Assembly: GCA_002841595.1 (NCBI GenBank)
Contig: PHAD01000002.1
Coordinates: 1 to 46,160, forward strand
DNA: 46,160 bases
Origin: Firmicutes bacterium HGW-Firmicutes-12
Lineage (GTDB): Bacteria; Bacillota; Peptococcia; DRI-13; PHAD01
Direction: 5' to 3'
In this document: positions 686-25,928 of the stretch, piece after piece
Position numbering within the stretch: position 1 is the stretch's first letter
Layout of the letters: each line of letters begins with the position of its first letter
Program-made: the position numbers and the translations under genes
The notes under the pieces: generated by a model
What the model was told of the DNA's origin: nothing
The model's input: only the letters and a program-made list of their open reading frames with translations
Database searches by the model: none

Positions 686-725
686 GATATCTACTCCTGT
701 TAATTTATCTTCGGTTTCCACAAGA

Positions 726-752
726 CGCCCTCTTCAACTTAGTAAGAGGGCG
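726..752. other. Intergenic stem-loop between glgC and glgD
   Basis: CGCCCTCTT(726-734)-9 nt loop-AAGAGGGCG(744-752), perfect 9-bp stem, no clear U-tract. Confidence 0.55.
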
Positions 753-781
753 ATGTGTCAATCCTCGAAATTAGTCTCGCT

Positions 782-2029: not shown

Positions 2030-2043
2030 TACTTCATTCCCCT

Positions 2044-4509
2044 TTAATCTTGTAATTTAAGCTGTCTTGGTAATAAAACCTGTTTGTCTTCTTCCTTTAT
2101 AGGTTTTATTCCCCATATTTCCTCTGCATACTCCCGAATTGTCCGATCACTTGAGAAGGAACCCGAGTAGGCTATGTTATTTATACACATTCTTATCCAT
2201 TCCTTCCTATCCCTGAATTTCTGTTGCAGATTGTTTTGAGCATTCACATAGGTCGCAAAGTCACGCAAGACAAAAAAATCATCATTATGATGGAGAAGAT
2301 GATCATAGATTGACGGATAATTCATTTGGTCAAATACTCCATTGACTAGCTGATTGCAGATTTTATGCACTCTCTCATCAGTATTATAGATATCCCAAGC
2401 TTTGTAATCTCCATTAGTATAATAGTCCAATACCTCATCAGCACTCAGACCAAAGGCAATAAAATTATCTGCACCAACCTTTTCCCTTATTTCCACATTA
2501 GCCCCGTCAAGCGTACCAATAGTTACTGCCCCATTCATCATAAATTTCATATTCCCAGTACCCGAGGCTTCTTTACTAGCTGTTGATATCTGTTCACTTA
2601 CGTCTGCCGCCGGAAAAGCCAGCTCAGCAAGTGAAACGTTGTAGTTTTCTAAGAATACGACTTTAATCTTTTCTCGAATAACCCGGTCATGATTTATGGT
2701 CTGGGCCAAAGAATTGATTAATTTGATAACGCGTTTGGCGAGAAAATATGCGGGTGCTGCTTTCCCACCAAAAATAAAAGTACGCGGTACAATCTCTAAT
2801 TCCGGGTTTTCATACAAACGATTATATAGATCAATGATATGAAAGACATTCAGTAGTTGTCGCTTGTACATATGAATTCTTTTAATATGGATATCAAAAA
2901 TAGAATCTGGATTCAGTTTGATACCCTGTTTATCAAAAATATAATGCGCGAGGCTTAGTTTATTTTCCTGTTTTATCTTTGCAATCTTCTCCTGTAATAT
3001 TCCGTCTTCGGCCATAGTCGCGAGCTTTTCCATTTTCATAGGTTTGTTAATCCAATCATCCCCTAGTACCTCTGTTAATAGCCTACTTAAGGAAGGGTTG
3101 GAAATTGGGAGCCATCTTCTCTGAGAAATCCCATTAGTTTTATTGTTAAATTTTGTGGGATAAAAATTATGAAAGTTATTCATTACTCGTTTCTTTAATA
3201 TCTCCGTGTGGAGACGAGCTACTCCATTGACGCTATGACTACCTATAATGGCCAAATTTGCCATTTTTATATTTCCGTCACTTATAATGGCCATATCTCT
3301 TACTTTTTCCCTTAATTCCGGATAATTATTTATTAAATCACCACAAAATCTGGTGTTGATTTCTTCTACAAGCATATATATTCTGGGCAACAATCGACGG
3401 AAAAGCTCTACCCCCCATCTTTCAAGGGCTTCGGGCAGCAGGGTATGATTAGTATAAGAGATAGACCCAGTTGTTATTGACCAAGCCTCGGCCCAGTTCA
3501 TACCTTCTTCATCAATAAGTATTCGCATTAACTCTGCTACGGCTAAAGCAGGGTGGGTATCATTAATATGGATAGCATTATTCTTATGAAAATCTTTCAT
3601 AGAGCTGCCTTCTTTTTTATATTGATGTATAATACTTTGCAGTCCGGCAGACACAAAGAAATACTGTTGTTTTAATCTTAGTTCTTTGCCCTCATAACTA
3701 CTATCATCAGGATAAAGGACCTGAGAAATAGCTTCTGCACGTATTTTCTCGTGAAAAGCCCAGCCATATTCCCCATGAGAAAAAGTATGAAACTCAAAAT
3801 CAGTTCTATCCGTTTCTGCACTCCACAACCTTAAGTTATTTACCGTATTATTTCGGTAACCAATTATTGGTATATCATAAGGTATTGCCTTAACTACTTC
3901 ATAGTTTTCATGGGTAAACAGTGACTTATCATCCTGAAATGCTACCGTAACTGATCCACCAAATCGCACTTTTTCTGCTTTTTCTGGTTTTCTGTACTCC
4001 CAAACACAGGGCTCATGCAACCAATTATCGGGTAACTCCGTCTGTTCACCGTCTACTATCAGTTGTTCAAAAAGACCGTAGCGATAGCGTATTCCACAGC
4101 CAAACCCTGGCATTCCCAAAGAAGCCAAAGAATCAAGAAAAGCTGAAGCTAATCTACCTAAACCCCCATTTCCAAGTCCAGGATCTTCCTCCTGTTCTTT
4201 TACTTCCTCCAATTTAATAGCGAGATCATCTAAGCCTTCGGATACTATTTCTTCTATTCCCAAATAATGCAGATAGTTTAATAAAAACCTGCCTGGTAAA
4301 AATTCTATCGAGAAGTAGTACACTCTCTTTTCATTTTGTTGGCTATAGATATTTTTAGAAGTATTCCATTTTCTGCTAATTTCATCCCTAACCAAACTAG
4401 CTAGAGTCCGATAGTATTGATATCGGTTACCTTCCGTAAAATCTTCTCCATGTAATTCAAGAAATCGCTCTTGAAATGCCTTCTTAAAGCCTTCCTTTTC
4501 CATAAACAT
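2044..4509 (-). CDS. glgP: Glycogen/starch phosphorylase
   Basis: [37 protein letters not shown] (PLP lysine motif), 821 aa. Confidence 0.97.
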
Positions 4510-4580
4510 GCCTTCAACCCCCGCTTTAGGATGTGGGTATTTATTTTATTTTTACCCAGAAATATCTGTTTTTATTTTAA

Positions 4581-6446
4581 TTACGACAATTTAAAAAGCA
4601 CAAATGCTAGTGGAGGTACTTTAATTTCCAGTGAATATGGTTGATTATGCCATGGTATATTTTCCGCAGCCAGCAACACGCTGTTTTTCTTGTCTGACCC
4701 TCCATAAACTCCTAGGTCACTGTTAAATATTTCTTGATAAGTACCGTCCAATGGTACACCTATCCTGAAGCCTTCATAATACTGCGGTGTGAAATTACAA
4801 AGTACTAATAGCTGTTCAGCTTTATTTCTACTCTTTCTTAGAAATACAATAATGCTCTGTGAATTATTGTGGCAATCTATCCATTCAAAACCTTCCCAAC
4901 TATGATCTTGCTGCCATAATGCCTTCTCGGCACTATACATTCTGTTCAAGTTCTTAACGTAATCCTGAAACCTACGATGCATCTCAAAACTCAAGAGGTC
5001 CCATTCCAAGGCTTCATAATACCGCCATTCAATGAATTGTGCCAACTCGCCACCCATAAATAACAACTTCTTACCGGGATGAGTCATCATATACCCAAGA
5101 AAGACTCGTAAATTAGCAAATTTTTGCCAATAATCCCCAGGCATTTTTTCTATTAGCGATCTTTTCCCATGAACAACTTCATCATGAGACATCGGCAGTA
5201 TGAAATTTTCCGAGAAAGCGTAGAGGAATGAGAAAGTTAATAAATTATGATGCCAGGAACGATAGATTGTTTCTTTTTCCATGTATTTCAGCACATCGTT
5301 CATCCAGCCCATATTCCACTTATAATTGAAACCCAACCCTCCTGCATAGGTTGGTCCTGTTACTAAAGCCCACTCGGTAGACTCCTCTGCTATCATCATC
5401 GCCTTCGGAAAATTTAAGAATACTGCTTCATTCAATTTCTTTAATAAGGTTATGGCCTCTAGATTACCATTCCCTCCATACTTGTTAGATATCCATCCAC
5501 CCTCTTTGCCATAATTAAGGTACAACATACTGGCAACAGCATCTACCCTTAATCCATCCACATGAAATATATCAAACCAAAAAAAAGCATTGGAAATAAG
5601 AAAACTCATAACTTCAGGTCTACCATAATCAAAACGCATGGTTCCCCAGCCTTGTAATTCTTCAGCCTCATAAAGACGGGTACCATCAAAATCAATGAGG
5701 CCATGACCATCCTTACAGAAATGGGCCGGTACCCAATCCAGTATCACCCCTATACCACGCTGGTGACAGCAATCCACAAAATACATGAAATCATGGGGCG
5801 TCCCATAACGACTTGTTACTGCATAATAACCGGTTATCTGATATCCCCAAGACCCGTCATAGGGATGCTCCATAATGGGCAATAATTGGATGTGGGTATA
5901 CCCCATTTCCACTACATACTCTACTAAATCATGAGCCAATTCTCTGTAAGTATAAAAGGTTCCATCATCCTTTAGTTTCCATGAGCCGAGGTGAACTTCA
6001 TAGATATTAACAGGCTTATCGTATACCGTCTTATCGTTATTGACCCACTCTTGGTCACCCCAAATGTATTCATGTAGGTCATATGTTACTGAAGCTGATT
6101 TTGGTCGGCATTCTGCATAAAAAGCATAGGGATCAGCTTTCAGCAAAACCGTTCCATAATCCGTCTTTATTTCATATTTGTACAACTCTCCTTGCTGGAG
6201 GTTAGGAATGAAAAGAGACCAGATACCTGATTCCTTTATCCTTTGTAATGAATGTAATTTACCGTTCCAGTTATTGAAGCTTCCGACGACACTTATTTCT
6301 TTCGCATTAGGGGCCCAGACGGAAAACCGAACTCCTTTTTTTCCATCCTCTTCCCTAAATTGAGCTCCTAACATTTCATAACTCTTAAAGAGATTGCCTT
6401 GATGGAAAAGATATATATCATGGGGTGTTGGAAAACCTAACGTCAT
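4581..6446 (-). CDS. glgB: 1,4-alpha-glucan branching enzyme
   Basis: FSVWAPNA, IYEVHLGSW, SWGYQ, GLRVDAVASM, AEES, SHDEVVHGK; start moved to ATG 6446, which has a GAAAGGCAGGA RBS-like site upstream (ORF track starts at 6518). Confidence 0.96.
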   Translation of the reverse strand: MTLGFPTPHDIYLFHQGNLFKSYEMLGAQFREEDGKKGVRFSVWAPNAKEISVVGSFNNWNGKLHSLQRIKESGIWSLFIPNLQQGELYKYEIKTDYGTVLLKADPYAFYAECRPKSASVTYDLHEYIWGDQEWVNNDKTVYDKPVNIYEVHLGSWKLKDDGTFYTYRELAHDLVEYVVEMGYTHIQLLPIMEHPYDGSWGYQITGYYAVTSRYGTPHDFMYFVDCCHQRGIGVILDWVPAHFCKDGHGLIDFDGTRLYEAEELQGWGTMRFDYGRPEVMSFLISNAFFWFDIFHVDGLRVDAVASMLYLNYGKEGGWISNKYGGNGNLEAITLLKKLNEAVFLNFPKAMMIAEESTEWALVTGPTYAGGLGFNYKWNMGWMNDVLKYMEKETIYRSWHHNLLTFSFLYAFSENFILPMSHDEVVHGKRSLIEKMPGDYWQKFANLRVFLGYMMTHPGKKLLFMGGELAQFIEWRYYEALEWDLLSFEMHRRFQDYVKNLNRMYSAEKALWQQDHSWEGFEWIDCHNNSQSIIVFLRKSRNKAEQLLVLCNFTPQYYEGFRIGVPLDGTYQEIFNSDLGVYGGSDKKNSVLLAAENIPWHNQPYSLEIKVPPLAFVLFKLS

Positions 6447-6579
6447 TAATACAATCCTGCCTTTCAAATATATTCCTTTAAATAATCCTTTATATTTACC
6501 ATCAATATATCTTGCCACTATTCACAGCCAATTAAACAAATTAGGGTAGCTTTTTATTTATGAAAGAATTTTCCTTTTA

Positions 6580-6612
6580 AAAAAAAGAAAACCCAGGTAA
6601 ATAACCTGGGTT
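6580..6612 (-). terminator. Rho-independent terminator after the NYN gene
   Basis: AACCCAGGT(6590-6598)/ACCTGGGTT(6604-6612) stem followed on the minus strand by a long T-run. Confidence 0.8.
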
Positions 6613-6647
6613 GACATACTATTCTTATTGTTTAAGCTTTCTATTAT

Positions 6648-7196
6648 TCACTTTACAACCTCCATAGCAAAATCATTGATCCAGTGTACCTTATCACTAT
6701 ACGACTGAAGGTTTGGAGAAACACCATATCTAAACACACATAATTCTATTCTTTTATTCAAGTATTCCTTTACGTGGACTATGGCATCTTCTAAGTCACC
6801 ATCTCCCGATGATAAAATAAGGTTATCATAGTTTTGTTGATGGGCGAGCTTAACTATAAGCGTAGCTATGCCTACATCCACACCCTTTTGAATCTGTTCA
6901 GATAACATGGACGAGCAATGCGGGCAGCGATATTCATCTTCTTTTAGCTCATATAGCTTTACGATAAATTGAGGTCCATCAGGGCGGGCAGTTTTTAACC
7001 ATGTATTAAAGGCATTTTGGGCATCGGAAGGAGGATTTTGTGTTGAATTTAAATAGTAAGTCCGATTAATACAACCCAACTTTTCTAACTTGTTGCGTAA
7101 TTTTAAATAATCGAAATTAAAAGCGGGACTAACTGAGCGCTGTGCATTAAATAAATATGCAGCATCTATCAGCCAGATGGTTTTGCCCTGTCGCAT
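6648..7196 (-). CDS. NYN/LabA-DUF88 (PIN-like) domain protein
   Basis: IDAAYL, QKGVDVGIA and SSGDGDL acidic motifs typical of NYN domains; CPHC insert; AAGGAG RBS. Confidence 0.85.
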   Translation of the reverse strand: MRQGKTIWLIDAAYLFNAQRSVSPAFNFDYLKLRNKLEKLGCINRTYYLNSTQNPPSDAQNAFNTWLKTARPDGPQFIVKLYELKEDEYRCPHCSSMLSEQIQKGVDVGIATLIVKLAHQQNYDNLILSSGDGDLEDAIVHVKEYLNKRIELCVFRYGVSPNLQSYSDKVHWINDFAMEVVK

Positions 7197-7392
7197 TGCA
7201 ACAACTCCTTTTTTAGGTACACATAACTTATATTAATAATATATTTTTCATTCTACATCTTATTATTCTACCTTTCAATCTCAATATTTTAGCCATTTTT
7301 AATAAACTTTTTAAAAATGATAAAAAAATAGTGGAAAATAATCTATAATAAACTAAATAGTAGTAATTTATCAAGTTAAGGAGGAAACCTTC

Positions 7393-10300
7393 TTGCCTAA
7401 AATGTATCCCCTAACTCACCCTCAAATGCGTATCTGGTATGTTGAAAAGACTTTTCCTGGTACCAGTGTCGCTAATATTGCTGCCACCGTCAGAATAAAA
7501 GAACGTATTGACTATATTGCCTTAGAAAAAGCCCTTAATCATTTCATCAAAATTAACGATTCTATGCGCACTCGCATAATCGAGCAAGGTACTACCCCCA
7601 AGCAGTTTTTTTCTCCATATGAAGAATCCAGTATGGAATTATATGATTTTAGCGGACAACCTGTCGAAGCCCTTTATGAATGGGATACTAAACTCTCCCG
7701 TATTTCTATGCCTTTTATTGACTCACCACTATTCTATTTTGTACTATTTAAATTAAATGATTTTGACGGAGGTTTCTTCTGCAAACTACATCACTTAATT
7801 ACAGATGCCTGGTCAGAGATGTTAATAGTTTCCCAGGTTATGAATGCGTACAGGTCATTTTGCGAGGACCGCGAACCTGAACAAACCTCAAATTATTCTT
7901 ATATCGATTATATTGCGAGAGAACAAAACTACCTACTTTCTGACAGATATCAGAAAGATCAAATATATTGGATAGAACAGTTTACTCCCGTCCCCGAATT
8001 GGTAACATTGCAAACCAAAAAACCTGCCAAAAGAAGTCTTGCAGCAAAACGCAAAACCTTTATTCTTTCAAATGAAGAAGCTGAGCAAATTCGTTTATTT
8101 TGTAAAATAAATGAGGTCACAGTTTTTTCTTTCCTTTTAACCATGCTCACTATATATATTAATCGCTTAACTGGTTCTAATGATGTTGTTCTCGGTACTC
8201 CCGTATTAAACCGTCTCAATTCAAAAGAGAAACAAATGATGGGTATGTTTATTAGCACCGTCCCACTCAGATTTCGTATAGACGAAAATGCTCCATACTT
8301 GGAATATGTATCAAGCATTAATAAGGCGTGGCTTTCCATCCTGCGACACCAACAGTTTCCCTACGATGTACTGCAACGCACTCTAAGAAAGAGTAATACC
8401 GATCTAGAGAACCTCTTTGAAATTACTCTTTCCTATCAAAATGCCAAGGTAACACGAGAAAGCATGCTTTGGGATGCCTCTACGCGCTGGCATTTTTCAG
8501 GATACCAAAATGAACCCTTGGTCATCCATATTAACGATCATGATGATAATGGTGTTCTAATCTTAAATTACGACTATAATACAAGCTGTTTTGCTGATCG
8601 AGAAATTCAATTTATTCATAGCCATTTTAAAAGCTTGCTTGAAGATGCACTCCATAATCCTACTAAACCCATTAAGTCTCTTAGCCTGATTGGCCAGGAT
8701 GAACTCCAGAGAATACAAGCCTTTAATTCAATTAGTTCTGACTATGATAAGAACAAGACATTTGTAGAACTCTTCGAAAGACAGGTTAATTTAACTCCAC
8801 AGGCTCATGCCTTGGTTTTCCACGATATCCCACTCACCTTTGCTGATCTCGAGCTCCAGGCAAATCGCCTCGCATATCACTTACGCAGCTCTGGTGTCAA
8901 GCCTGATAATATAGTAGCTGTAATGCTACCTCGCGGTCATGAACTAATTATTTCCTTGTTAGGTGTCTTAAAATCCGGTGGTGCCTTCTTACCTATAGAC
9001 CCTTCCTATCCTAGTGACCGCATTAAATATATGCTATCTGATAGTACAGCAAAATTTGTTATTACAACTCCCGAGCTTGCGAATAACTTTGCAATAAACC
9101 CTGGGTTGGTTATTCCACCTAACGATAAGCGTATAAATGAGGCCCCCTCATCACGACTGCCCTTAGTCAATAAGCCGGAAGATCTTATTTATATAATATA
9201 CACCTCCGGTTCCACCGGACTTCCTAAGGGTGTCATGGTGAAACATTCAGGGCTTAGTGCATATATACATGCTCTTAATAAGATTATGTATTTTCAAGCT
9301 GGTGAAGCCGTTTTATCCATCTGCACTATTGCCTTTGATATATTTATTTTTGAGGTTTTTCCCTCATTAGTATATGGTATGAAGATAATCCTAGCTGATG
9401 AAAACGAACAAAAAATTCCTTCTTTACAAAAGGAACTAATAACAAACCATAAAATAGTAAAATTCTTGGGGACACCAGTCCGTATGAAGCTACTGTTAGA
9501 TGACCCCGGTAGCCGCGAGAGTCTGGCAAATCTTAAAGAAGTTATGCTTGGTGGTGATATTTTTCCTGTATCATTGCTAAAGCAGATGCAAGAGACCTTA
9601 TCTGCTGAAATATTTAATGGCTACGGTCCAACAGAGACTACCATTGGTGTAACTTTTAAGAATTTAACTCACTCAAATGATATCAATATTGGCCGCCCTA
9701 TCGCTAACACCAAAATTTATATTTTAGATAAACACATGAATCTGGTCCCTATAGGTATACCTGGAGAAATATACATCGGTGGAGATGGCTTAGCCCGTGG
9801 ATATCTGAATAATCCGGAATTAACCTCAGAAAAGTTCATTCCTAACACATTTACTCCAGGCGAATATTTATATCGTACTGGCGACCTCGGTCGTTGGTAT
9901 CCAAAAGGAGAAATTGCCTTTCTAGGACGTATCGACTCACAAGTGAAAATCCACGGACATAGAATTGAGCTAGGAGAGATCGAAAATGCTATCCGTAAAC
10001 ACCCTAATATATCAGACGTCGTTGTACTAGATATCGAAGACCGAGGCAGAAAGGCTCTTTGCGCATACATTGTGCCTTCTAAGGATCAAACACCTGATTT
10101 TCATGTTTTACGAAAAGAATTATATAAAAGATTGCCTAATTTTATGGTTCCCTCTTTTTACATGTTAATAAATACTATTCCCCTGAATTCAAGTGGTAAA
10201 ACAGATAGACGAGCTCTTCCAGCCCCTGACAGTGCAAAATCTCTACATAATAAATTCGAGCCACTAACAGACTCAACAGAGATTAAACTTTCAAATATTT

Positions 10301-11367
10301 GGGAACAAATCCTAGGTCTGTTAGAAATTAATGCCGGTGAGGATTTTTTTGAACTAGGCGGTGATTCTCTTGATGTAGTAAACCTTATTACAGCCATTCA
10401 TTGTGGTTTTGGCGCAGAATTATCAATTAGTGATATTTATGAATTGCCGACATTACGCATGCAAGCAGAAAAAATAAAAGAACTCAAAACTGATGGAACC
10501 GTCTTGACTATATGTCCAAATCTCGTCACATTGCACCATAGCATAGAACCAAGAAAAGTATTTTTTATACACGCGGGTAATGGAGAAATAAACAACTACT
10601 ATGAACTAACTCAACTTCTTAATAGTAATATGTCTTTTTATGGACTACGCTATCTTACTAATAGTGTTGCACCTAATAATGTAACAATACAAGAACTAGC
10701 TAATCTTTATCTACAACAGATACGCACCGTACAACCTCAAGGCCCCTATAATCTTATTGGATGGTGTATCGGTGGTACGATAGCTTTTGAAATAGCCCGA
10801 CAACTTGAAGAATTAGGGGAACAAATTGACTGCCTTTCTCTAATAAATTCTATCTCCCCACGCGTATGGCATGGAGTAACCCCATTTACTCAAGAAACCG
10901 AGCTTAAATTCTTATTAGATATACTGCCGGAACAAGAAAAATATATAAGTACTAACGCTTTAGATATACAAGCACTATGGCAAGATGCAATTAAAGAGCT
11001 CCAATCTATAAGTAATATTGAGCAACTCATACGTACCAAAATTCCCAACGAAGTTGCTGTAAGTATCCCCAACCTTTGTAATACAGACATGCCTACCCTT
11101 ATCAAATATATCAATATTATACGTACTTTGCATGTTGCCCGTGTTTATTACAAACCCTCTACAGCATTAAATACTAAGCTTAGTTTTATCGAGGTTAGTG
11201 CAAATGATGTTATTACTGACAAAAATGCCAACCTAGCAGATTGGCAACGTTTCTGTTCTCATCCCATTAATCGCCTACAAGTACCAGGAGATCACTATTC
11301 GATTTTTGCCGCTCCTAATGTAGTAAAACTCGCTCACCTCCTTAGTTCCTTACTTGGCCGTGAGTAG
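7393..11367 (+). CDS. Stand-alone monomodular NRPS, C(starter)-A-PCP-TE
   Basis: C: YPLTHPQMRIW and HHLITDA (7789-7809); A: YTSGSTGLPKGV, FDIF, NGYGPTE, YRTGD, GRIDSQVKIHGHRIELGEIE, NSSGKTDR; PCP: FFELGGDSL (Ser 10366-10368); TE: GWCIGG and VPGDH; AAGGAGG RBS before TTG. Confidence 0.95.
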   Translation: MPKMYPLTHPQMRIWYVEKTFPGTSVANIAATVRIKERIDYIALEKALNHFIKINDSMRTRIIEQGTTPKQFFSPYEESSMELYDFSGQPVEALYEWDTKLSRISMPFIDSPLFYFVLFKLNDFDGGFFCKLHHLITDAWSEMLIVSQVMNAYRSFCEDREPEQTSNYSYIDYIAREQNYLLSDRYQKDQIYWIEQFTPVPELVTLQTKKPAKRSLAAKRKTFILSNEEAEQIRLFCKINEVTVFSFLLTMLTIYINRLTGSNDVVLGTPVLNRLNSKEKQMMGMFISTVPLRFRIDENAPYLEYVSSINKAWLSILRHQQFPYDVLQRTLRKSNTDLENLFEITLSYQNAKVTRESMLWDASTRWHFSGYQNEPLVIHINDHDDNGVLILNYDYNTSCFADREIQFIHSHFKSLLEDALHNPTKPIKSLSLIGQDELQRIQAFNSISSDYDKNKTFVELFERQVNLTPQAHALVFHDIPLTFADLELQANRLAYHLRSSGVKPDNIVAVMLPRGHELIISLLGVLKSGGAFLPIDPSYPSDRIKYMLSDSTAKFVITTPELANNFAINPGLVIPPNDKRINEAPSSRLPLVNKPEDLIYIIYTSGSTGLPKGVMVKHSGLSAYIHALNKIMYFQAGEAVLSICTIAFDIFIFEVFPSLVYGMKIILADENEQKIPSLQKELITNHKIVKFLGTPVRMKLLLDDPGSRESLANLKEVMLGGDIFPVSLLKQMQETLSAEIFNGYGPTETTIGVTFKNLTHSNDINIGRPIANTKIYILDKHMNLVPIGIPGEIYIGGDGLARGYLNNPELTSEKFIPNTFTPGEYLYRTGDLGRWYPKGEIAFLGRIDSQVKIHGHRIELGEIENAIRKHPNISDVVVLDIEDRGRKALCAYIVPSKDQTPDFHVLRKELYKRLPNFMVPSFYMLINTIPLNSSGKTDRRALPAPDSAKSLHNKFEPLTDSTEIKLSNIWEQILGLLEINAGEDFFELGGDSLDVVNLITAIHCGFGAELSISDIYELPTLRMQAEKIKELKTDGTVLTICPNLVTLHHSIEPRKVFFIHAGNGEINNYYELTQLLNSNMSFYGLRYLTNSVAPNNVTIQELANLYLQQIRTVQPQGPYNLIGWCIGGTIAFEIARQLEELGEQIDCLSLINSISPRVWHGVTPFTQETELKFLLDILPEQEKYISTNALDIQALWQDAIKELQSISNIEQLIRTKIPNEVAVSIPNLCNTDMPTLIKYINIIRTLHVARVYYKPSTALNTKLSFIEVSANDVITDKNANLADWQRFCSHPINRLQVPGDHYSIFAAPNVVKLAHLLSSLLGRE

Positions 11368-11387
11368 ATCTTTAAGGGAGTATTAAA

Positions 11388-13253
11388 ATGGACTTTTCAT
11401 TTATTCTGTTATGTCTTTCATCATTAATGCTATTTATTCTTTTCGCCTTCTCTTTAAAGATAAGAAGACGCAGCCATCTTTATTATGCTTTTTTAGCAGT
11501 ACTAGTAACTATGCTCTTTTGGACAAACGGTAACATTCTTGCCTGGATAACATATCAACAAACAGGAAAGATAGTAATGGGTTTTGTTAAATTGTGGTAC
11601 ATAGGCAACTGTTACCTACCAGTTTTTCTATACCTAACCGGTATTCTTTTCAAAAAAGATCGCCTTGAGCGGACCTGGCGATGTATTTTTCTATTTCTAC
11701 CTCCAACTATATCTTACCTTACTATCTTAACTAACGAGTTTAACGGCGGCTTATTCTATCGTCAATTCTCATTAATGAACACTGAGGTTATTTTAGGCCC
11801 GGTTTTCTATTTTCACTCAGCAATATCATATTTATATTTAGGCCTTGCCATCTACCATTTGATGACATTTTCTACTCAAACTACCGGACTATTCTCAAGA
11901 CAGTCCCTAATTATTATGACTGCTACACTTATCCCTATTACAGTAAATATTATAACTACTTTGAGATTAATTAATTTGCCCGTATATTATACTTCTATTG
12001 CTTTTTCTATTACTGTTTTTCTGTTCTTTATTTCCATTGTCAAATACCGTTTCCTTAACCTAACCCCTATTGCTATCCAAACTGTGCTTGACAAAATGAG
12101 CGATAGTATTGTTGTCATCAGTGACAACCATATTACATATAGTAACAACCCATTTCTGGAGAAATTTCAATTCAAGACTACCAAATTATATAATCTATTT
12201 GAGCTTTTTAATAGCCATCCTCATTTACAGGTTTTAGGCAACAAACTCGAAAAGAAAATTGAAATCTTGCAAGAGTCCCCAGAAATACATTCTTTTGATC
12301 AAGAGTTATTTCTAAATAACGATGTACACTACTTCCATATCGAAATAACTCCCCTCTATACACCTAATAATAATGTGTTGTGGGGTTTCTTACTTTTTTT
12401 TAAGGATACTACTCAAATTCGTAAAGCCAATGATATTATTCACCGCAATCAAACAATGCTAATAGAACAACAGCATCTCGCCTCCCTCGGACAACTTATC
12501 GGTGGTATTGCCCACAACATGAGAACTCCGATCATGTCTATTTCAGGGGGCTTAGAAGCACTACGTGATCTCGTACATGAATACGAGATCTCTCTTGGAG
12601 ATAATACAGTAACAGAGGATGACCATAGAGAAATTGCCGCGGAAATGATAGAATGGATTAAGAAGACTAAACCTTTTTGCTCTTATATGTCTGATATTAT
12701 TTCAGCTGTAAAGGATCAGGCCGTGCGCTTAAATGAATCATCAATGAGTAAATTTACTGTTACTGAGCTTTTAAAAAGGATAGACCTCTTAATGAAGCAC
12801 GAATTACAGATGGGTCACTGTATCTTACTTATAGATAACCGCATGCCTGAAGAAACAGAGCTCCCTGGTACGATGAATAATATGATTCAGATAATTGGGA
12901 ATATTATTGTTAATGCCATTGAGGCTTATGAAGATACGCAAAGTAAAATTGAGTTAATCGTTGATGAGTGCAACACGATACGTAATAATATTAGAATTTC
13001 CATACGCGATTATGGCCCAGGCTTACCAGAACAGGTGCGAGGAAGAATTTTTAAAGAAATGACTACAACTAAAGGCAAAAAAGGTACAGGACTGGGTCTT
13101 TATTTATCCTATCTTACCATCAAGGGTAAATTCGGCGGAACCATGTGGTTTGATACCGTTACAAATCAGGGAACCACTTTCCATATTTCAATACCCACAA
13201 TACAGGCAAGCACGACGACAGGAGGAAAGTACCATGAGGAAAAAACTGGTTAG
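11388..13253 (+). CDS. Sensor histidine kinase with N-terminal 7TM (HisKA_7TM-like) region, PAS-like linker and HisKA/HATPase
   Basis: About 7 hydrophobic helices in the first ~220 aa; PAS-like VLDKMSDSIVVI...FFKDTT; H-box GGIAHNMRTP; N-box NIIVNAIEA; DYGPG; GTGLGLY. Confidence 0.9.
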   Translation: MDFSFILLCLSSLMLFILFAFSLKIRRRSHLYYAFLAVLVTMLFWTNGNILAWITYQQTGKIVMGFVKLWYIGNCYLPVFLYLTGILFKKDRLERTWRCIFLFLPPTISYLTILTNEFNGGLFYRQFSLMNTEVILGPVFYFHSAISYLYLGLAIYHLMTFSTQTTGLFSRQSLIIMTATLIPITVNIITTLRLINLPVYYTSIAFSITVFLFFISIVKYRFLNLTPIAIQTVLDKMSDSIVVISDNHITYSNNPFLEKFQFKTTKLYNLFELFNSHPHLQVLGNKLEKKIEILQESPEIHSFDQELFLNNDVHYFHIEITPLYTPNNNVLWGFLLFFKDTTQIRKANDIIHRNQTMLIEQQHLASLGQLIGGIAHNMRTPIMSISGGLEALRDLVHEYEISLGDNTVTEDDHREIAAEMIEWIKKTKPFCSYMSDIISAVKDQAVRLNESSMSKFTVTELLKRIDLLMKHELQMGHCILLIDNRMPEETELPGTMNNMIQIIGNIIVNAIEAYEDTQSKIELIVDECNTIRNNIRISIRDYGPGLPEQVRGRIFKEMTTTKGKKGTGLGLYLSYLTIKGKFGGTMWFDTVTNQGTTFHISIPTIQASTTTGGKYHEEKTG

Positions 13254-14745
13254 TACTGTTCACGATTACAACATACTACTCGTCGACGATGAAATCGGAA
13301 TTATTGATTCAATTGGAACAGTTCTTAAACGTAATGGCTACATGTTTAAAGGGTGTACAAACCCACATGATGCAATCGATGCCGTCCGCAATGAACACTT
13401 TGATTTACTGGTATTAGACTTCTTAATGTATCCAATCCATGGAGATGAGGTAGTTAAGCAAATCCGCAGGTTTAATAAGGAGATCTACATCCTGCTATTA
13501 ACAGGTCATAAAGATCTCGCTCCCCCACTAGAAACCATAAAGCAACTGGATATACAAGGATATTGTGAAAAAAGTGATAATTTTGATCAACTTCTCCTAT
13601 TAATCGAATCTGGTCTAAAATCAATAAATCAAGTGCGGACAATTACTAAGTTCCGTGATGGCCTTAATAAAATACTGCAATCAGTCCCCAGGATATATCA
13701 ACTGCAACCAATAGATTCAATTCTTGAAGAAATCCTAGTTCAAATAATGCCTATTGTAAACAGTACAAATGCCTTTATTCTGGTGGATAACCCCACCGAA
13801 GAGAACAAGGATAACAAAAGTATATTTCGCGGTATCGGAAAATATAAGGCTGATTTGGATTCTTTCTGGCTAATGCTCACTTCCGAGTTTATTACGAATA
13901 TTGGAACAGCTCGTGCAGAAAAGACGAATGTGTTTCACGAGGAAGGTATTATTATCCCGCTTATCAACGAATACCAACATTCTTTAGGGATATTATATGT
14001 GGAGAGTCTAGACCGTGATGACGGTCTAGCTCTACTAGAGATATTTTCCAACCAAGCTGCTTCTTCTGTTAGTAATGCCTTTTTACATTCTCTAGTCAAT
14101 GTTAAGAACGAACAACTAAACAATACCTATATTCAATTAAAACGAAACTACTTAGATACGGTGCAAGCCTTACGCTTAGCTGTTGATGCGAAAGATGTCT
14201 ATACGCGTGGGCACTCTGACCGCGTAGCTTACTATTCCGTCGAGCTGGGTAAATTTATCGGACTTGGCCCTAAGGATTTACAAACACTTAAGCTAAGTGG
14301 GCTTTTCCATGATATAGGTAAGATCGGAACAGCAAATGATCTTCTTCTTAAGAGCGAGAAGCTTTATCCTGAAGAATACGAAGAAATAAAAAAGCATTCT
14401 CTCACTGGAGCACATATCCTCTCTGTAATATCCTTCTTTAAAGATGTCATCCCCATTGTAAGAAGCCATCATGAAAGAATTGACGGAACCGGCTATCCTG
14501 ATGGCCTTAAGGAAGACGATATACCCTACTTAGCAAAAATCATTTCGATTGCTGATGCTTTCGATGCCATGATGTCCGATAGAATGTATCGTTCCCGTTT
14601 AGAACGAGACAATATAAAGAAAGAGCTATTAAGAGGCGTCGGTAAACAGTTTGACTATCACCTAGTCAAGAGTTTTATAGAGATTATGGATAAATTACCC
14701 CCTACAGAAGATATTATAATGGATGATTTATCAATAGAATATTAA
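13234..14745 (+). CDS. Response regulator REC-(GAF/DUF3369-like)-HD-GYP, probable cyclic-dinucleotide phosphodiesterase
   Basis: REC: LLVDDE, LVLDFLM, LLTGH, YCEK; HD-GYP: HSDRVA, FHDIGK, HHERIDGTGYP, ADAFDAM; ATG 13234 after AGGAGG, overlapping the kinase 3' end by 20 bp. Confidence 0.9.
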   Translation: MRKKLVSTVHDYNILLVDDEIGIIDSIGTVLKRNGYMFKGCTNPHDAIDAVRNEHFDLLVLDFLMYPIHGDEVVKQIRRFNKEIYILLLTGHKDLAPPLETIKQLDIQGYCEKSDNFDQLLLLIESGLKSINQVRTITKFRDGLNKILQSVPRIYQLQPIDSILEEILVQIMPIVNSTNAFILVDNPTEENKDNKSIFRGIGKYKADLDSFWLMLTSEFITNIGTARAEKTNVFHEEGIIIPLINEYQHSLGILYVESLDRDDGLALLEIFSNQAASSVSNAFLHSLVNVKNEQLNNTYIQLKRNYLDTVQALRLAVDAKDVYTRGHSDRVAYYSVELGKFIGLGPKDLQTLKLSGLFHDIGKIGTANDLLLKSEKLYPEEYEEIKKHSLTGAHILSVISFFKDVIPIVRSHHERIDGTGYPDGLKEDDIPYLAKIISIADAFDAMMSDRMYRSRLERDNIKKELLRGVGKQFDYHLVKSFIEIMDKLPPTEDIIMDDLSIEY

Positions 14746-14749
14746 GAAT

Positions 14750-15166
14750 TCACTCGAAGTTATGTTGATCTTTTTTTCTATATACCATCCCAATAAAATT
14801 CGCTACAATTACATCTTTGTTGTCATCAAACACATCAACGTTATAACTGGCCAGCTTACTGTTTGCATATATTTCCTTTGCTTCAGCTATTAGTACTTTC
14901 CCTTTAGGTGGTCTAAAATATGTAATACTCACATTAATCCCTACCGCAACTTGTCCATATGAATTTGAAGCTACACCAAAGGCAAAATCAGCTAATGTAA
15001 AAGTAACTCCACCCTGCACTGAATCAATCGCGTTTAAATGATTATCACATATTTCTAATTTGGCAAGCGCATACCCCGACCCAACTTCTATGAGTTTTAT
15101 ACCTATAGATGCAGCAAACCGATCCTTTTTAAAATACTCCATCATTTGTTGTTGTTCTTTAGTCAT
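14750..15166 (-). CDS. PaaI-family hotdog-fold thioesterase
   Basis: DRFAASIGI, HLNAIDSVQGGVTFTLADFAFGVASNS; ATG 15166 after AAGGAGGAG. Confidence 0.88.
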   Translation of the reverse strand: MTKEQQQMMEYFKKDRFAASIGIKLIEVGSGYALAKLEICDNHLNAIDSVQGGVTFTLADFAFGVASNSYGQVAVGINVSITYFRPPKGKVLIAEAKEIYANSKLASYNVDVFDDNKDVIVANFIGMVYRKKDQHNFE

Positions 15167-15183
15167 AGTCTCCTCCTTATCCA

Positions 15184-15975
15184 CTAATAAATTAGTCTTC
15201 GTTTTAGCTTCTTAACTGCTAAATAGCCAAAAAACAAAATAAAAACAGCTATATAAAGCAAATCTAAAAACAGTTCTATTTTTAAACCTCCGGGCACACA
15301 AAACGCTCGGGATATTCTAACCACATGAGTTAGTGGAAGCATTTCCGCAAAATACCTCAGAGCTGCAGGAAGATTATCTATGGGAAACACTACTCCGGAA
15401 AAGAAAAACATCGGTGACAGTAAGCCAGTAAAGTAAAAATTAAAGTGGTTAATATTATTTACGGCAGATGTAATAAACATTGATATTGCTGCAAACATTA
15501 CCCCACATAGAAAACCGGCCCCAGCCGCCATAATACTTAGAGGGTACGTTATAATACCTGTTAACCAACCCACGATAAGAACGGCAAATGCAAAGAAAAA
15601 GCCTTTTGTTCCAGCAAAAAGTATCTCTCCAATTATAAGGTCGTCTGTGGAAATGGGAGCTCCCAGTATCCCATCATAAACCTTATCAAATTCTAACCGA
15701 ATAAAAGTGCCGAAGGTGCATTCATACGCTGCGGTAAACATTGCAGTAGTTACGATAAGACCACTTGCCAAAAACAAAACGTAATTCATTCCCTCAAAAT
15801 CCTCTAAATAGCTTCCTAAACCTATCCCCAAAGCAGTCAAAAGAATCAACGGTTCTAGGAAGGGAGTAATCGTATTGCTAAAAAAATTGGCATTATATAC
15901 CCTCACATGACGGTACCAAACACTACCAACACGTTTCCACCACGGGGGAACTTGATAAGCTTTATTGCAGTTCAT
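15184..15975 (-). CDS. ABC-2 type exporter permease, NodJ-like
   Basis: About 6 TM segments; LEPLILL..LGIGLG, YDGILGAPI, PMFFFSGVVFP, LPLTH motifs; overlaps the ATPase stop. Confidence 0.85.
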   Translation of the reverse strand: MNCNKAYQVPPWWKRVGSVWYRHVRVYNANFFSNTITPFLEPLILLTALGIGLGSYLEDFEGMNYVLFLASGLIVTTAMFTAAYECTFGTFIRLEFDKVYDGILGAPISTDDLIIGEILFAGTKGFFFAFAVLIVGWLTGIITYPLSIMAAGAGFLCGVMFAAISMFITSAVNNINHFNFYFTGLLSPMFFFSGVVFPIDNLPAALRYFAEMLPLTHVVRISRAFCVPGGLKIELFLDLLYIAVFILFFGYLAVKKLKRRLIY

Positions 15976-16897
15976 TTAGACTCCTCCCCGTAACCTTTAA
16001 GAATAAATCCTCCAGGTTGGCTGGACGAATATGATAATCATGTTCTGGTAATTGATCTCCTAAAACTGAAAGCGCTACAGCCTCATTACTATATATAAAT
16101 ACAGTGTCCTGAAAACACTCATATCTAAGGCCGTATTCAGTACAGTATGATTGGTAATCTCTAGTCCCTCGTTGGGCAGAATGAATTTCCATAACATATT
16201 TCTCTATACTACCTGCTAATAATTCTCTTGGAGGTCCCTCCAATATTTTTTTACCCTTGTCCATTATAATGATCCTATTGCAGATCTGAAAAGCCTCTTC
16301 CATATAGTGAGTTGATAAGAGAATAGTAACCCCTTTTTCTTGCAATTCCCGTATCTTATTCCAGATAAGATGCCTAACCTGAGGATCAAGACCAGTAGTG
16401 GGTTCATCCAATATCAATAAACGGGGGTTGTTAATAAGTGCTCTAGCAATAGTGAGCCGGCGCTGCATCCCCCCTGATAACTCCTGCACACGGGCCTTAG
16501 CTTTATCCTGCAATTCCATGAAAGATAGCAATTCTTCAATTCTTGTCCGGGCTAACTGGGCAGATATACCATAGAATTTAGCATATATTGCTAGATTATC
16601 TTTGACATTAAGTTCACTGTCAAGATTGTCTTGTTGGGGTACAATCCCTGCTAAAGCCTTTATTTTAAGTGCATCCTTTCTCGGATGAAAACCAAAAATA
16701 CTAATGTCTGTATCCTGACATTCATCAGGTACAGATACTCCATAAATTGTTTTCATGGTTGTACTTTTTCCAGCCCCGTTTGGTCCAAGCAGACCAAGAC
16801 ATTCAGTTCTTTTTACCAGAAAATCAAGACTATCTACAGCCTTTATATTGCCGTAAGTTTTATTCAGATTCCTCACAAGTATTTCTACATCATCCAA
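15962..16897 (-). CDS. ABC exporter ATP-binding subunit, NodI/DrrA-like
   Basis: GPNGAGKST, LSGGMQRRL, LDEPTTGLDPQ, THYMEEA, RPANLEDLFLKVTGR; probable TTG start at 16897 after GAAAGGTGA. Confidence 0.88.
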   Translation of the reverse strand: MDDVEILVRNLNKTYGNIKAVDSLDFLVKRTECLGLLGPNGAGKSTTMKTIYGVSVPDECQDTDISIFGFHPRKDALKIKALAGIVPQQDNLDSELNVKDNLAIYAKFYGISAQLARTRIEELLSFMELQDKAKARVQELSGGMQRRLTIARALINNPRLLILDEPTTGLDPQVRHLIWNKIRELQEKGVTILLSTHYMEEAFQICNRIIIMDKGKKILEGPPRELLAGSIEKYVMEIHSAQRGTRDYQSYCTEYGLRYECFQDTVFIYSNEAVALSVLGDQLPEHDYHIRPANLEDLFLKVTGRSLNELQ

Positions 16898-16954
16898 CTT
16901 AATATCACCTTTCCAATACTTAACATACTCTATCATAAGAATAGAGAAAGTAGA

Positions 16955-17137
16955 TTATTTTACTTGTATAGCTTTCATCGGACAGAATTTAATACACTTC
17001 TCACATTTAATACACGCCTCTTGATCAATTGTTGGCAGAGCATAACCTTCTTGCTTTATTGCATTAACTGGGCATACCTTCACTGCTGGACATCTGTGAT
17101 TTTGTGGACATCTACTTTCATTAACTGTAAGCTGCAT
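16955..17137 (-). CDS. Small 4Fe-4S dicluster ferredoxin-like protein
   Basis: CPQNHRCPAVKVCP and CIKCEKCIKFCP motifs; GGGAG RBS. Confidence 0.88.
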   Translation of the reverse strand: MQLTVNESRCPQNHRCPAVKVCPVNAIKQEGYALPTIDQEACIKCEKCIKFCPMKAIQVK

Positions 17138-17166
17138 AATCTATCACTCCCAATATCATATTATTT

Positions 17167-17219
17167 ATACCCCCGTAGGGTATGAATAATATGATATACC
17201 TATATACAATAATTTTCAA
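17167..17219 (-). promoter_or_regulatory. SigA-type promoter with a CsoR-family operator near +1
   Basis: Minus-strand TTGAAA(17219-17214)-17 bp-TATCAT(17196-17191); operator ATACCCTACGGGGGTAT at 17183-17167. Confidence 0.65.
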
Positions 17220-17260
17220 TTAAATTTTGTCCGCTTTCCATATTTTGTTTATTATTTAGA

Positions 17261-17434
17261 CTATTCTTTTACTATCTTAATTGAATCTAGTTGTTGTTTA
17301 AAATTCTGTCTGAAAACTGCCAGATACTCTTGGCGTAGTATCTGCTGTTCTTTAGACTCTTCTGCGGTTAAAGCCTGAAGCTTAGCAATTCTTGCTAACT
17401 CATTTATCCTTTGTATTCGTTCTTCATGTGTCAT
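17261..17434 (-). CDS. DUF896/UPF0291 (YnzC-like) small protein, 57 aa, absent from ORF track
   Basis: Manual translation MTHEERIQRINELARIAKLQALTAEESKEQQILRQEYLAVFRQNFKQQLDSIKIVKE; RINELA...LRQEYL..FR signature. Confidence 0.88.
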   Translation of the reverse strand: MTHEERIQRINELARIAKLQALTAEESKEQQILRQEYLAVFRQNFKQQLDSIKIVKE

Positions 17435-17481
17435 TTCCTAATCAACCCCCATCCAATATATCTCAACTTCTAATTTTGTAT

Positions 17482-18231
17482 TTAAATCTCAAGCCCAACG
17501 GGACAATGATCACTGCCCAATATGTCATCATAAATAGGAGCACACCTAACTTGATCCTTTATGCGTTCTGACACAAGAAAATAGTCAATGCGCCAACCAA
17601 CATTATTAGCCCTGGCCTTAAACATATAAGACCACCACGTATAAGCTTCTGTTTTGTCGGGATGTAAATAACGGAACGTATCAACAAAGCCTGCTCCTAA
17701 TAGCTCGGTCATTTTTTCACGTTCTTCAGGAGAGAATCCGGCGCTCCCAACATTAGACTTCGGGTTTTTTAGGTCTATCTCTCGGTGGGCCACATTCATA
17801 TCTCCACATACTATCACCGGCTTCTTTTTATCTAAGCTTTGCAAATGGGCACAAAAATCGTCCTGCCATCGAATCCGATATTCTAGACGTGCTAAACCCC
17901 TTTGGGAATTGGGGACATATATATTAACAAGATAAAAGTCATCATATTCTAAAGTGATTATGCGTCCTTCTGAGTCATGCTCTGCTATCCCCAAATCAAG
18001 CGTAACTACATTGGCTTTCATCTTAGAAAATACAGCTGTCCCAGAATAACCTTTTTTTACAGCACTATTCCAGTATTCCTCATAATCAGGAAGATTAATA
18101 TCAGCCTGTCCTTTTTGCATTTTTGTTTCCTGTATACAGAAGATATCAGCATCAATATCCTTGAAAAATTCCAAAAACCCTTTATTCAAACTGGCTCGTA
18201 GGCCGTTCACATTCCACGAAACAAGCTTCAT
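17482..18231 (-). CDS. xth: Exodeoxyribonuclease III / AP endonuclease
   Basis: SWNVNGLRA, CIQETK, GYSGTA, CGDMNVAH, GWRIDYF, SDHCP. Confidence 0.96.
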   Translation of the reverse strand: MKLVSWNVNGLRASLNKGFLEFFKDIDADIFCIQETKMQKGQADINLPDYEEYWNSAVKKGYSGTAVFSKMKANVVTLDLGIAEHDSEGRIITLEYDDFYLVNIYVPNSQRGLARLEYRIRWQDDFCAHLQSLDKKKPVIVCGDMNVAHREIDLKNPKSNVGSAGFSPEEREKMTELLGAGFVDTFRYLHPDKTEAYTWWSYMFKARANNVGWRIDYFLVSERIKDQVRCAPIYDDILGSDHCPVGLEI

Positions 18232-18309
18232 CTTATGCTCTTTACCCCCTTATGTTTAAATATTATGCCTATTTTAGCTCCCCGAAATCATAGCCAATAC
18301 CTATGCTGC

Positions 18310-19188: not shown

Positions 19189-19215
19189 TAAAACACCTCA
19201 TTTTTTATAAGCTAT

Positions 19216-24897: not shown

Positions 24898-24962
24898 TTT
24901 GTCTCACCTGCTACTACACTCGTTTTTTGCTACTTTAATTTTCTTGTCATTAAAATATAAAT

Positions 24963-25808: not shown

Positions 25809-25928
25809 GATTTTCATCCTTTCAGTGGTTTTAACATTATTCTTTGTTGTCTACGTTGAGATAATGCATCATTATCTTCATTGTCTTGATATAATAGTAC
25901 TTATAATGCTACTAGGAGGTAAATTCAT

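Follow-up and report, generated by a model that had tools for sequence, protein, structure and literature searches.

The stretch analysed here, called the window, comprises 46,160 nucleotides (nt) of Firmicutes bacterium HGW-Firmicutes-12 (contig PHAD01000002.1, C148 in our numbering) and belongs to a 2.78 Mb draft genome of 189 contigs that is 96.8% complete. According to open reading frame (ORF) calls and Pfam, positions 7393-14745 are filled by three plus-strand genes encoding, in this order, a nonribosomal peptide synthetase (NRPS), a histidine kinase and a response regulator with a cyclic di-GMP (c-di-GMP) phosphodiesterase output. A gap of 20 nt separates the NRPS stop at 11367 from the kinase ATG at 11388, while the end of the kinase gene (13253) and the start of the regulator gene (13234) overlap by 20 nt. 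Each gene has its own ribosome-binding site (RBS): that of the NRPS is given in Table 1, AAGGGAG precedes the kinase ATG and AGGAGG the regulator ATG. On the plus strand of window 7000-15400, no terminator-like site was found; a promoter scan was uninformative, returning 26 sites for 31.4 expected. Every flanking ORF of at least 100 amino acids (aa) in window 1-25800 lies on the minus strand. An earlier note, made from the letters alone, had described this tight linkage, the mostly minus-strand surroundings and the domain content of the three proteins; the ORFs, the sequence and Pfam bear it out on each point. The three-gene unit stays together in many anaerobic Firmicutes, gut species among them, and has the look of a chemical signalling system, based on a self-made compound, of a kind not described so far.

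The NRPS is a termination-type module with condensation (C), adenylation (A), peptidyl carrier (PCP) and thioesterase (TE) domains, all four above their Pfam cut-offs in one polypeptide (Table 1). It scores 424 bits against TIGR01733 (cut-off 317); no NCBIfam equivalog was found for the NRPS, the kinase or the regulator. The catalytic motifs are present: HHxxxD in the C domain, followed by Ala instead of the usual Gly, the Asp235/Lys517 anchors of the A domain, the Ser of the GGxS motif in the PCP, and a nucleophile-His pair in the TE. Compared with two-module relatives, the C domain shares 29-68% identity with their first C domain and 20-26% with their internal one. As this domain is N-terminal and the NRPS is the only adenylation-domain match in its own genome, the acyl donor would most simply be an acyl-CoA or an acyl-ACP. 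The ten pocket residues of the A domain, taken from an alignment anchored on the window motifs, read DIFLMGGIGK and are identical in the orthologue of the syntenic genome G002. This mapping is supported by the relatives, in which the same alignment columns give strings that we take to be canonical codes for Ser, Thr, Val, Gly and Pro. Because the code is hydrophobic, has Gly at three positions and, apart from the Asp/Lys anchors, contains nothing polar, the expected substrate would be a hydrophobic amino acid of some bulk. Such an amino acid, hydrophobic and N-acylated, is the probable product.

The TE harbors a Cys at the nucleophile position (GWCIGG), a His in GDHYS and an Asn at the usual Asp position. 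Six TE-type NRPSs were aligned (the window and the TE domains of L013, L016, L017, L022 and L029): the Cys within GWC(I/L)GG is found in 6/6, the His is conserved, and Asn stands for Asp in 5/6. The five with Asn are predicted to possess a papain-like Cys-His-Asn set within an alpha/beta-hydrolase TE. A Cys nucleophile in the terminal TE is shared with ObiF1 (obafluorin), which is among the solved-structure matches (6n8e), and with SulM (sulfazecin). ObiF1 and SulM catalyse the closure of a strained ring, beta-lactone or beta-lactam, at beta-substituted residues, whereas the pocket code of the window is purely hydrophobic. As we understand this chemistry, the lack of a polar residue in the code speaks against a beta-lactone-forming Cys-TE, and that reading was set aside here.

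The kinase is a HisKA_7TM sensor kinase: a seven-helix membrane domain (7TM; PF16927, aa 8-227, 106.3 bits for a cut-off of 28.6) is followed by the DHp and ATPase domains (HATPase_c, 68.9 bits). The PAS_9 match is weak, and HisKA, at 24.1 bits, falls just under its cut-off of 26.9. An AlphaFold2 model of aa 1-350, built from an 80-sequence alignment, reaches a mean pLDDT of 91.5 and exhibits seven long helices with short loops, then a PAS fold. (Alignment A2 leaves out the near-duplicates L066, L069 and L079.) A fold search with the sensor model returned solved relatives for the PAS part only, and none for the seven-helix bundle; the first-ranked match, a WalK-YycH model, was treated as not meaningful given its root-mean-square deviation of 37.5 Å.

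The regulator assembles a REC domain, a DUF3369 and an HD-GYP domain, the architecture of the 'RpfY' family of Galperin and Chou, and its predicted activity derives from these domains and from the motifs HD, HHE..DG.GYP and the downstream D, all intact in the translation. Its closest NCBIfam model, a NosR-family c-di-GMP phosphodiesterase regulator, stays under its cut-off. In the family description (10.1101/2021.11.05.467447), VCA0210, of the same REC-DUF3369-HD-GYP architecture, is reported to hydrolyse c-di-GMP. The genome has a large c-di-GMP network, with 18 GGDEF matches and 18 HD-GYP-type matches. Its only c-di-GMP-I riboswitch is located upstream of a che operon (genes running from 4799 down to 2) that encodes a CheX/CheC-like protein, a CheY-like receiver, CheA, CheW and a methyl-accepting chemotaxis protein. 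Two further proteins couple HisKA_7TM to GGDEF, so that the same sensor type would also drive c-di-GMP synthesis in this genome.

Table 1. Coordinates of the cassette, of its surroundings and of features in related loci (window positions unless a locus or contig is named).
Feature	Position	Strand	Remarks
Single-module NRPS, C-A-PCP-TE	7393-11367	+	1324 aa, TTG start; ORF and Pfam
RBS of the NRPS gene, GGAGG	7380-7384	+	8 nt before TTG 7393; read from the sequence
Condensation domain	7399-8712	+	aa 3-440, N-terminal position, putative starter; Pfam, 291.9 bits (cut-off 30.6)
Adenylation domain	8773-10200	+	aa 461-936; Pfam AMP-binding 461-805 (275.6 bits, cut-off 29.9) plus AMP-binding_C
Peptidyl carrier domain	10288-10470	+	aa 966-1026, GGDS phosphopantetheine site; PP-binding, 51.1 bits (cut-off 20.8)
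Thioesterase domain	10555-11328	+	aa 1055-1312; Pfam Thioesterase, 88.0 bits (cut-off 26.4)
Sensor histidine kinase	11388-13253	+	621 aa; ORF and Pfam
Kinase, 7TM	11409-12068	+	Pfam
Kinase, PAS	12102-12416	+	Pfam
Kinase, HisKA	12486-12599	+	Pfam
Kinase, HATPase	12882-13199	+	Pfam
Response regulator with phosphodiesterase output	13234-14745	+	503 aa, likely start ATG 13234; ORF and Pfam
Regulator, REC	13273-13605	+	aa 14-124
Regulator, DUF3369	13609-14091	+	aa 126-286
Regulator, HD-GYP	14179-14658	+	HD_5/HD, aa 316-475
c-di-GMP-I riboswitch	L120 (G000:C66) 5120-5206	-	only one found in the genome; 88.3 bits
HisKA_7TM-GGDEF protein, own genome	G000:C1:21696-23246	+	536-aa frame
HisKA_7TM-GGDEF protein, own genome	G000:C54:2253-3740	-	524-aa frame
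Multi-TM GGDEF-HD-GYP fusion	L113 7691-9520	-	609 aa; directly after C-A-T-R NRPS
Multi-TM GGDEF-HD-GYP fusion	L114 9550-11322	+	590 aa; directly after C-A-T-R NRPS
Multi-TM HD-GYP protein	L116 9901-11307	+	468 aa; directly after C-A-T-R NRPS
Glycogen block	2-6518	-	upstream; two nucleotidyl-transferase (GlgC/GlgD-like) genes, glycogen phosphorylase, branching enzyme
NYN-domain gene	6648-7196	-	upstream, after the glycogen block
4HBT thioesterase and ABC-2 transporter	14750-16936	-	downstream, convergent, abutting the operon
Agmatine deiminase-type and carbon-nitrogen hydrolase genes	18310-20247	-
LigD primase-polymerase domain, ATP-dependent DNA ligase, Ku	23060-25817	-
Tandem NRPS-kinase sets	L105 (G104:C59) 1038-20000
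NRPS with two tandem 7TM kinases	L109 (G382:C2) 6004-13929	-
Genes upstream of an NRPS-less pair	L101 (G376:C13) 1-1851
Genes upstream of an NRPS-less pair	L081 1637-5485

The trio is a conserved cassette, with a linkage far beyond chance; the counts that follow are limited by the contigs of metagenome-assembled genomes (MAGs), by the relatedness of the loci, by simple ORF calling and by tblastn domain calls. The window genome was compared with the three other genomes of its family (G001, G002, G003), in all of which the NRPS orthologue is directly followed by the kinase and the regulator. NRPS identity amounts to 62-63% in G001 and G002 and to about 40% in G003, where a reductase (R) replaces the TE. 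G002 is syntenic throughout; in G001 and G003, the cassette sits between flanks that bear no relation to those of the window. Of the 88 genomes in the class to which the window belongs, five hold the kinase (E up to 1e-60): the four of its own family and G014, where it is located behind a two-module NRPS and contains one TGA.

Kinase relatives were then collected with the four-kinase alignment, one genome per species, and the best 80 of 474 confirmed stretches were used. They share 36-67% identity and all originate from Clostridia-type MAGs or isolates, many of human, rabbit or mouse gut. NRPS domains occur directly upstream, on the same strand, in 75/80; among the five others, four have at most 1.3 kb of upstream sequence and one (L081) has 5.6 kb. 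The regulator is found near the kinase in 71/80 (69 by script and two more cut off by a contig end), at no more than 400 nt and on the same strand at 50 loci, and 0.5-7.9 kb off or inverted at 19. ORF clustering of 83 loci gives 83 with the kinase, 75 with the NRPS and 73 with the regulator; the next family, with 30 loci, reflects the local synteny of one gut clade, so only the trio is widely shared. In a gut two-module clade (L030, L035, L037-L040, L042 and others), the regulator lacks DUF3369 (38 of the 69 regulator-positive loci) and often lies 0.5-8 kb from the kinase or is inverted.

A sample of 401 genomes drawn evenly from the phylum contains the kinase in 16, including the window's own. 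The 15 others hold 18 kinase places, of which 16 lie in NRPS clusters; the two exceptions are L101, with 1.9 kb of upstream sequence carrying a transposase-like gene, and a place at a contig end. It had been anticipated that the signalling idea would fall if pairs of this kinase and an HD-GYP protein usually occurred free of the NRPS; the 75/80 relatives and the 16/18 phylum-sample matches beside an NRPS show the opposite. Some of the phylum-sample kinases share only the catalytic half; ahead of it they have a HAMP domain, itself preceded by an N-terminal part of about 355 aa and of unknown type. At three places the kinase gene comes before that of the NRPS, and one locus closes with a REC-GerE regulator instead.

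A few of these loci deviate in their gene order or neighbors. L105 carries tandem NRPS-kinase sets: a two-module NRPS, a HAMP-type kinase and a REC-DUF3369-HD-GYP protein, then a second kinase and a second, C-A-R NRPS. In L109, two 7TM kinases in tandem (583 and 588 aa) come after a C-A-R NRPS, with no REC-HD-GYP gene within 6 kb downstream. Upstream of its kinase-regulator pair, L101 has a fragment of a Mu/TnsD-like transposase and an unknown gene of 208 aa. In L081, the genes in that position are one for a 543-aa protein that matches nothing significantly in Pfam and one of the radical-SAM type.

The architecture of the synthetase varies. At 67 of the 80 loci the NRPS starts with a C domain inside the flank: 49 have two modules plus a reductase and 18 a single A domain, the latter ending with a reductase (9), a TE (4) or no recognised release domain (5, among which L041 and L055 with two C hits). 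Six loci are of TE type when the window and G001 are included, and reductase release is found in 64 of the 75 loci with NRPS domains. The one-module TE form of the window is therefore a minority in a family made mostly of two modules plus a reductase. One-module reductase forms mostly exhibit a Ser-type code (9 loci, including G003), TE forms hydrophobic codes, and the two-module forms of the gut diverse A codes. The C-A-T-C-A-T-R topology (T, carrier domain) of the gut MAG loci with this kinase (49/67) is what we take to be the architecture of the family described by Guo et al., a membership that is presumptive.

These differences in specificity can be followed into the kinase. Pairs were compared among the 67 of 83 loci whose NRPS starts with a C domain inside the flank, the predicted product being defined by the codes and the release type. 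At a catalytic-domain identity of 0.9-1.0, the 7TM identity is 0.90 for the same product (8 pairs) vs 0.69 for different products (8 pairs); at 0.8-0.9 it is 0.78 (10 pairs) vs 0.54 (83 pairs), and at 0.7-0.8 it is 0.69 (7 pairs) vs 0.50 (198 pairs). L016, which has the same A code as the window, shares with it 67% of the 7TM and 75% of the catalytic domain, while L013 and L017, with other codes, share 55% and 50% of the 7TM at 75% and 72% of the catalytic domain, respectively. Trees of 66 loci (L040 was left out, its NRPS being split into two ORFs) point in the same direction: the class of the last-module code changes 26 times on the sensor tree and 37 times on the catalytic tree, with about 50 changes for shuffled labels. 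Restricted to two-module loci, the figures are 19 vs 30, with 34 for shuffled labels, and for the first-module code 19 vs 22. As measured by these identities and trees, the sensor domain of the kinase, unlike its catalytic domain, varies in step with the last-module code of the NRPS, which is what a cognate signal/receptor pair predicts.

Three pairs of loci provide a close view of this co-variation. L038/L078, L072/L094 and L053/L089 have kinase cores that are 97%, 95% and 91% identical and 7TM domains that are 51%, 48% and 47% identical; within each pair, the first module has one and the same code and the last module does not. Sliding DNA identity remains at 95-99% in module 1, the kinase core and the regulator, and drops to 47-78% (mostly 50-65%) in one block spanning the last module (module 2), the R domain and the 7TM. 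Cores are alike and sensors unlike in these pairs because one replaced block covers the last module through the sensor. Its left breakpoints vary within module 2, and in 3/3 pairs its right end falls where the 7TM meets the PAS or where the PAS finishes (PAS identities of 0.49, 0.88 and 0.76).

A reverse search with the window C domain (E up to 1e-50) retrieved 22 of the 401 genomes, and 15 of the 21 besides the window's own are the kinase genomes already mentioned. Among the six others, two have an Sfp-type transferase and a C-A-T-R NRPS, then a protein of 5-6 predicted transmembrane (TM) segments fused to GGDEF and HD-GYP, and a third has a C-A-T-R NRPS followed by a five-TM HD-GYP protein (Table 1). 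The last three comprise one without a signalling gene beside the NRPS, one with large multimodular NRPSs and one whose contig is too short for a verdict. Sfp-type phosphopantetheinyl transferase (PPTase) genes precede the NRPS in L113, L114 and L115. By their domain content, the multi-TM GGDEF/HD-GYP fusions would be the one-component counterpart of the two-component arrangement in the window. With 7TM kinases, HAMP kinases and multi-TM fusions beside them, these related NRPSs are therefore tied to c-di-GMP enzymes through three sensor kinds.

A mechanism can be proposed along these lines. Primary metabolism would supply the N-terminal C domain with an acyl donor, a hydrophobic amino acid would be loaded by the A domain, and the unusual Cys-type TE would release a small lipophilic product. 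The kinase would detect this product via its membrane-embedded 7TM domain, possibly helped by the adjoining PAS, and would set the phosphorylation state of the regulator. The latter would change c-di-GMP hydrolysis and hence c-di-GMP-controlled behaviour, probably motility or chemotaxis. We consider it rather probable that the trio is such a cognate signal/receptor cassette, with a kinase that senses what the NRPS makes and in turn switches c-di-GMP hydrolysis. We infer what the product looks like, that it leaves the cell and binds the kinase, that it affects c-di-GMP and in which direction, and whether it serves population-level quorum sensing or a feedback within the cell. The reading put forward in the earlier note, an NRPS-made signal sensed by the kinase with a c-di-GMP output, has gained comparative support from the conservation of the trio and the co-variation of its sensor.

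Several observations weigh against a cognate cassette. The regulator is missing in 9/80 relatives, six of which have at least 6 kb of downstream sequence (6-10 kb), and at 6/18 kinase places of the phylum sample, while L081 (5.6 kb upstream) and L101 are NRPS-less kinase-regulator pairs. The C domain matches solved structures of Txo1/Txo2 (teixobactin synthetase, 116 bits), 7c1h (103) and CDA C1 (76), which does not separate the subtypes. Neither a c-di-GMP riboswitch nor any other Rfam element was detected in the window at gathering thresholds, and ORF clustering of the 83 loci revealed no exporter conserved with the cassette. Queries with a relative's PPTase and PF22624 found no Sfp-type PPTase in the window's own draft genome, whose sole PF01648 match is AcpS-sized (a 133-aa frame), and several relatives carry an Sfp-type gene beside the NRPS. 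The locus pairs and the tree counts come from related, non-independent loci. In L092/L094 both codes differ, yet the 7TM identity is 76%. Finally, as the replaced block is contiguous, the co-variation of sensor and last module could reflect mere neighbourhood, that is, hitchhiking.

The last two points lead to the alternative that survives best, which we nonetheless hold to be unlikely: the synthetase and the kinase would be co-regulated without being cognate. The kinase would sense another cue (such as the state of the membrane, a fatty acid, a precursor amino acid, or a lipid from the host or the environment), what the NRPS makes would serve as an effector (protease inhibitor or antibiotic) co-expressed with a c-di-GMP lifestyle switch, and sensor and last module would co-vary since they are adjacent and replaced together. 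This fits the fact that the diverged block is one stretch including the R domain, that some pairs with different codes retain similar sensors, and that the two 7TM-GGDEF proteins of the genome have, by position, no NRPS adjacent. Guo et al. (2017, Cell) reportedly interpreted the products of gut NRPSs as host-protease inhibitors, and Schneider and Balskus (2018) are said to have described ruminopeptin. This interpretation is summarised in PMC12327764, together with the products of the gut Clostridia NRPS family (dipeptide aldehydes, pyrazinones). Against mere co-regulation, the right breakpoint falls at the sensor boundary in 3/3 pairs while the left breakpoints differ, and only the three genes are conserved with the cassette. 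Moreover, the presence of three sensor kinds (7TM kinases, HAMP kinases of about 680 aa, and multi-TM GGDEF/HD-GYP fusions) beside related NRPSs would be difficult to account for if the product were not involved.

A second alternative, which we deem more doubtful still, is a cell-autonomous feedback or self-protection, whereby the kinase would monitor the cell's own membrane load of a reactive lipopeptide (aldehyde or acyl amino acid) and adjust physiology via c-di-GMP, with no role in population density. NRPS reductase release gives reactive aldehydes, and this is the release found in most relatives (64/75); the missing conserved exporter and a sensor that, in the model, is buried in the membrane with short loops are also consistent with self-monitoring. 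It offers, on the other hand, no obvious reason for the allelic diversification of synthase module and sensor, which in the agr and com pherotype systems separates communicating groups. As to the cassette being non-functional here, with a carrier that stays apo for want of an Sfp-type transferase, an NRPS that is a relic and a two-component pair working alone, this is very improbable, since the NRPS frames are intact and the catalytic motifs present, the G001 and G002 orthologues are intact too, the PPTase gene may be unassembled in a 96.8%-complete draft of 189 contigs, and some AcpS-type enzymes serve carrier domains of secondary metabolism.

Returning to the cognate cassette, it resembles two well-known kinds of systems in different respects. 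With the Rpf system of diffusible signal factor (DSF) in Xanthomonas (RpfF, RpfC, RpfG), it would share a lipophilic-signal synthase, a multi-TM kinase and a REC-HD-GYP protein encoded together, with a c-di-GMP output. An analogy with DSF had been drawn beforehand, and its synthase-kinase-REC-HD-GYP logic stands; membership in Rpf/DSF does not, on account of both synthase and kinase. The Rpf/DSF synthase is of crotonase type whereas that of the cassette is an NRPS, and none of the 23 ORFs scanned in window 1-30108 matches a crotonase-family synthase. RpfC is a hybrid kinase with a receiver and an HPt, in contrast with the plain HisKA_7TM-PAS kinase of the cassette, which has neither REC nor HPt. 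The regulator also differs: owing to the DUF3369 (GAF-like) between REC and HD-GYP it falls into the 'RpfY' and not the RpfG family, going by the description of these families (10.1101/2021.11.05.467447).

With agr (AgrBDCA) and ComQXPA, the cassette has in common a multi-TM histidine kinase that adjoins the signal-making genes. It also has what we take to be the agr/com pattern, in which a hypervariable block takes in the sensor along with the region of the synthase that sets specificity, and leaves kinase core and regulator conserved. In agr and com, the signal is a processed ribosomal peptide and the output a DNA-binding regulator, whereas here they would be a non-ribosomal product and a c-di-GMP phosphodiesterase; Pfam detects in the operon no ribosomal precursor, no AgrB-type processing protein and no LytTR regulator, so that the cassette is not an agr system. 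By analogy, its logic would be that of Rpf/DSF and its allelic structure that of agr. Bacterial signals that are small NRPS products, many of them derived from aldehydes, are described in PMC10194917 and PMC11480411, such as Pvf in Pseudomonas and leupeptin-derived pyrazinones in Klebsiella oxytoca. These systems belong to Proteobacteria and, as far as these sources show, have no adjacent dedicated 7TM kinase and HD-GYP regulator. Full-text literature searches yielded no description of a cassette of NRPS, 7TM kinase and HD-GYP regulator, although the primary papers on gut peptide-aldehyde NRPSs and their supplements may show flanking genes; this agrees with the initial impression that no system of this composition had been described.

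The surroundings of the operon in the window are listed in Table 1. The operon had been said to have no obvious immunity gene. A 4HBT thioesterase gene and an ABC-2 transporter gene do abut it on the minus strand, yet they are not conserved with the cassette except in one fully syntenic relative. Considered as cluster members, the two were rejected: they are conserved only in G002, whose entire neighbourhood is syntenic, they are missing beside the cassette in G001, G003 and L017, and they are not among the widely shared gene families. Further downstream are located a gene of the endonuclease/phosphatase family, polyamine genes and a two-component pair of OmpR type. Beside a carbon-nitrogen hydrolase stands a peptidyl-arginine (agmatine) deiminase of Porphyromonas type, and the two likely constitute an agmatine-to-putrescine route. 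The minus strand also encodes a bacterial non-homologous end-joining set, composed of a LigD primase-polymerase domain, an ATP-dependent DNA ligase and Ku.

Beyond the window, we tentatively entertain a broader view, to which we give somewhat less than even weight: the cassette may be a member of a large, unrecognised quorum-sensing class in anaerobic Firmicutes, including many Clostridia of the human and animal gut. In this class, an NRPS of one to three modules would make an autoinducer (N-acyl amino acid, amino aldehyde or dipeptide aldehyde), a dedicated sensor (7TM kinase, HAMP kinase or fused GGDEF/HD-GYP protein) would perceive it and change c-di-GMP, and last module and sensor would co-diversify into pherotypes, as in agr. 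Were this so, the peptide aldehydes and pyrazinones of the gut would be primarily inter-bacterial signals and not host-protease inhibitors.

Communication among Clostridia and their relatives is poorly known apart from agr-type peptides and autoinducer-2 (AI-2), and the small NRPS clusters that abound in gut anaerobes have no settled native role. A cassette with allele-specific sensor/synthase pairs would provide a concrete answer, as it names a receptor for each product, and if the reading is true, a ligand class would be assigned to the uncharacterised HisKA_7TM domain. Such a cassette would link secondary metabolism to the motile/sessile switch governed by c-di-GMP, and would offer natural orthogonal signal/receptor pairs.

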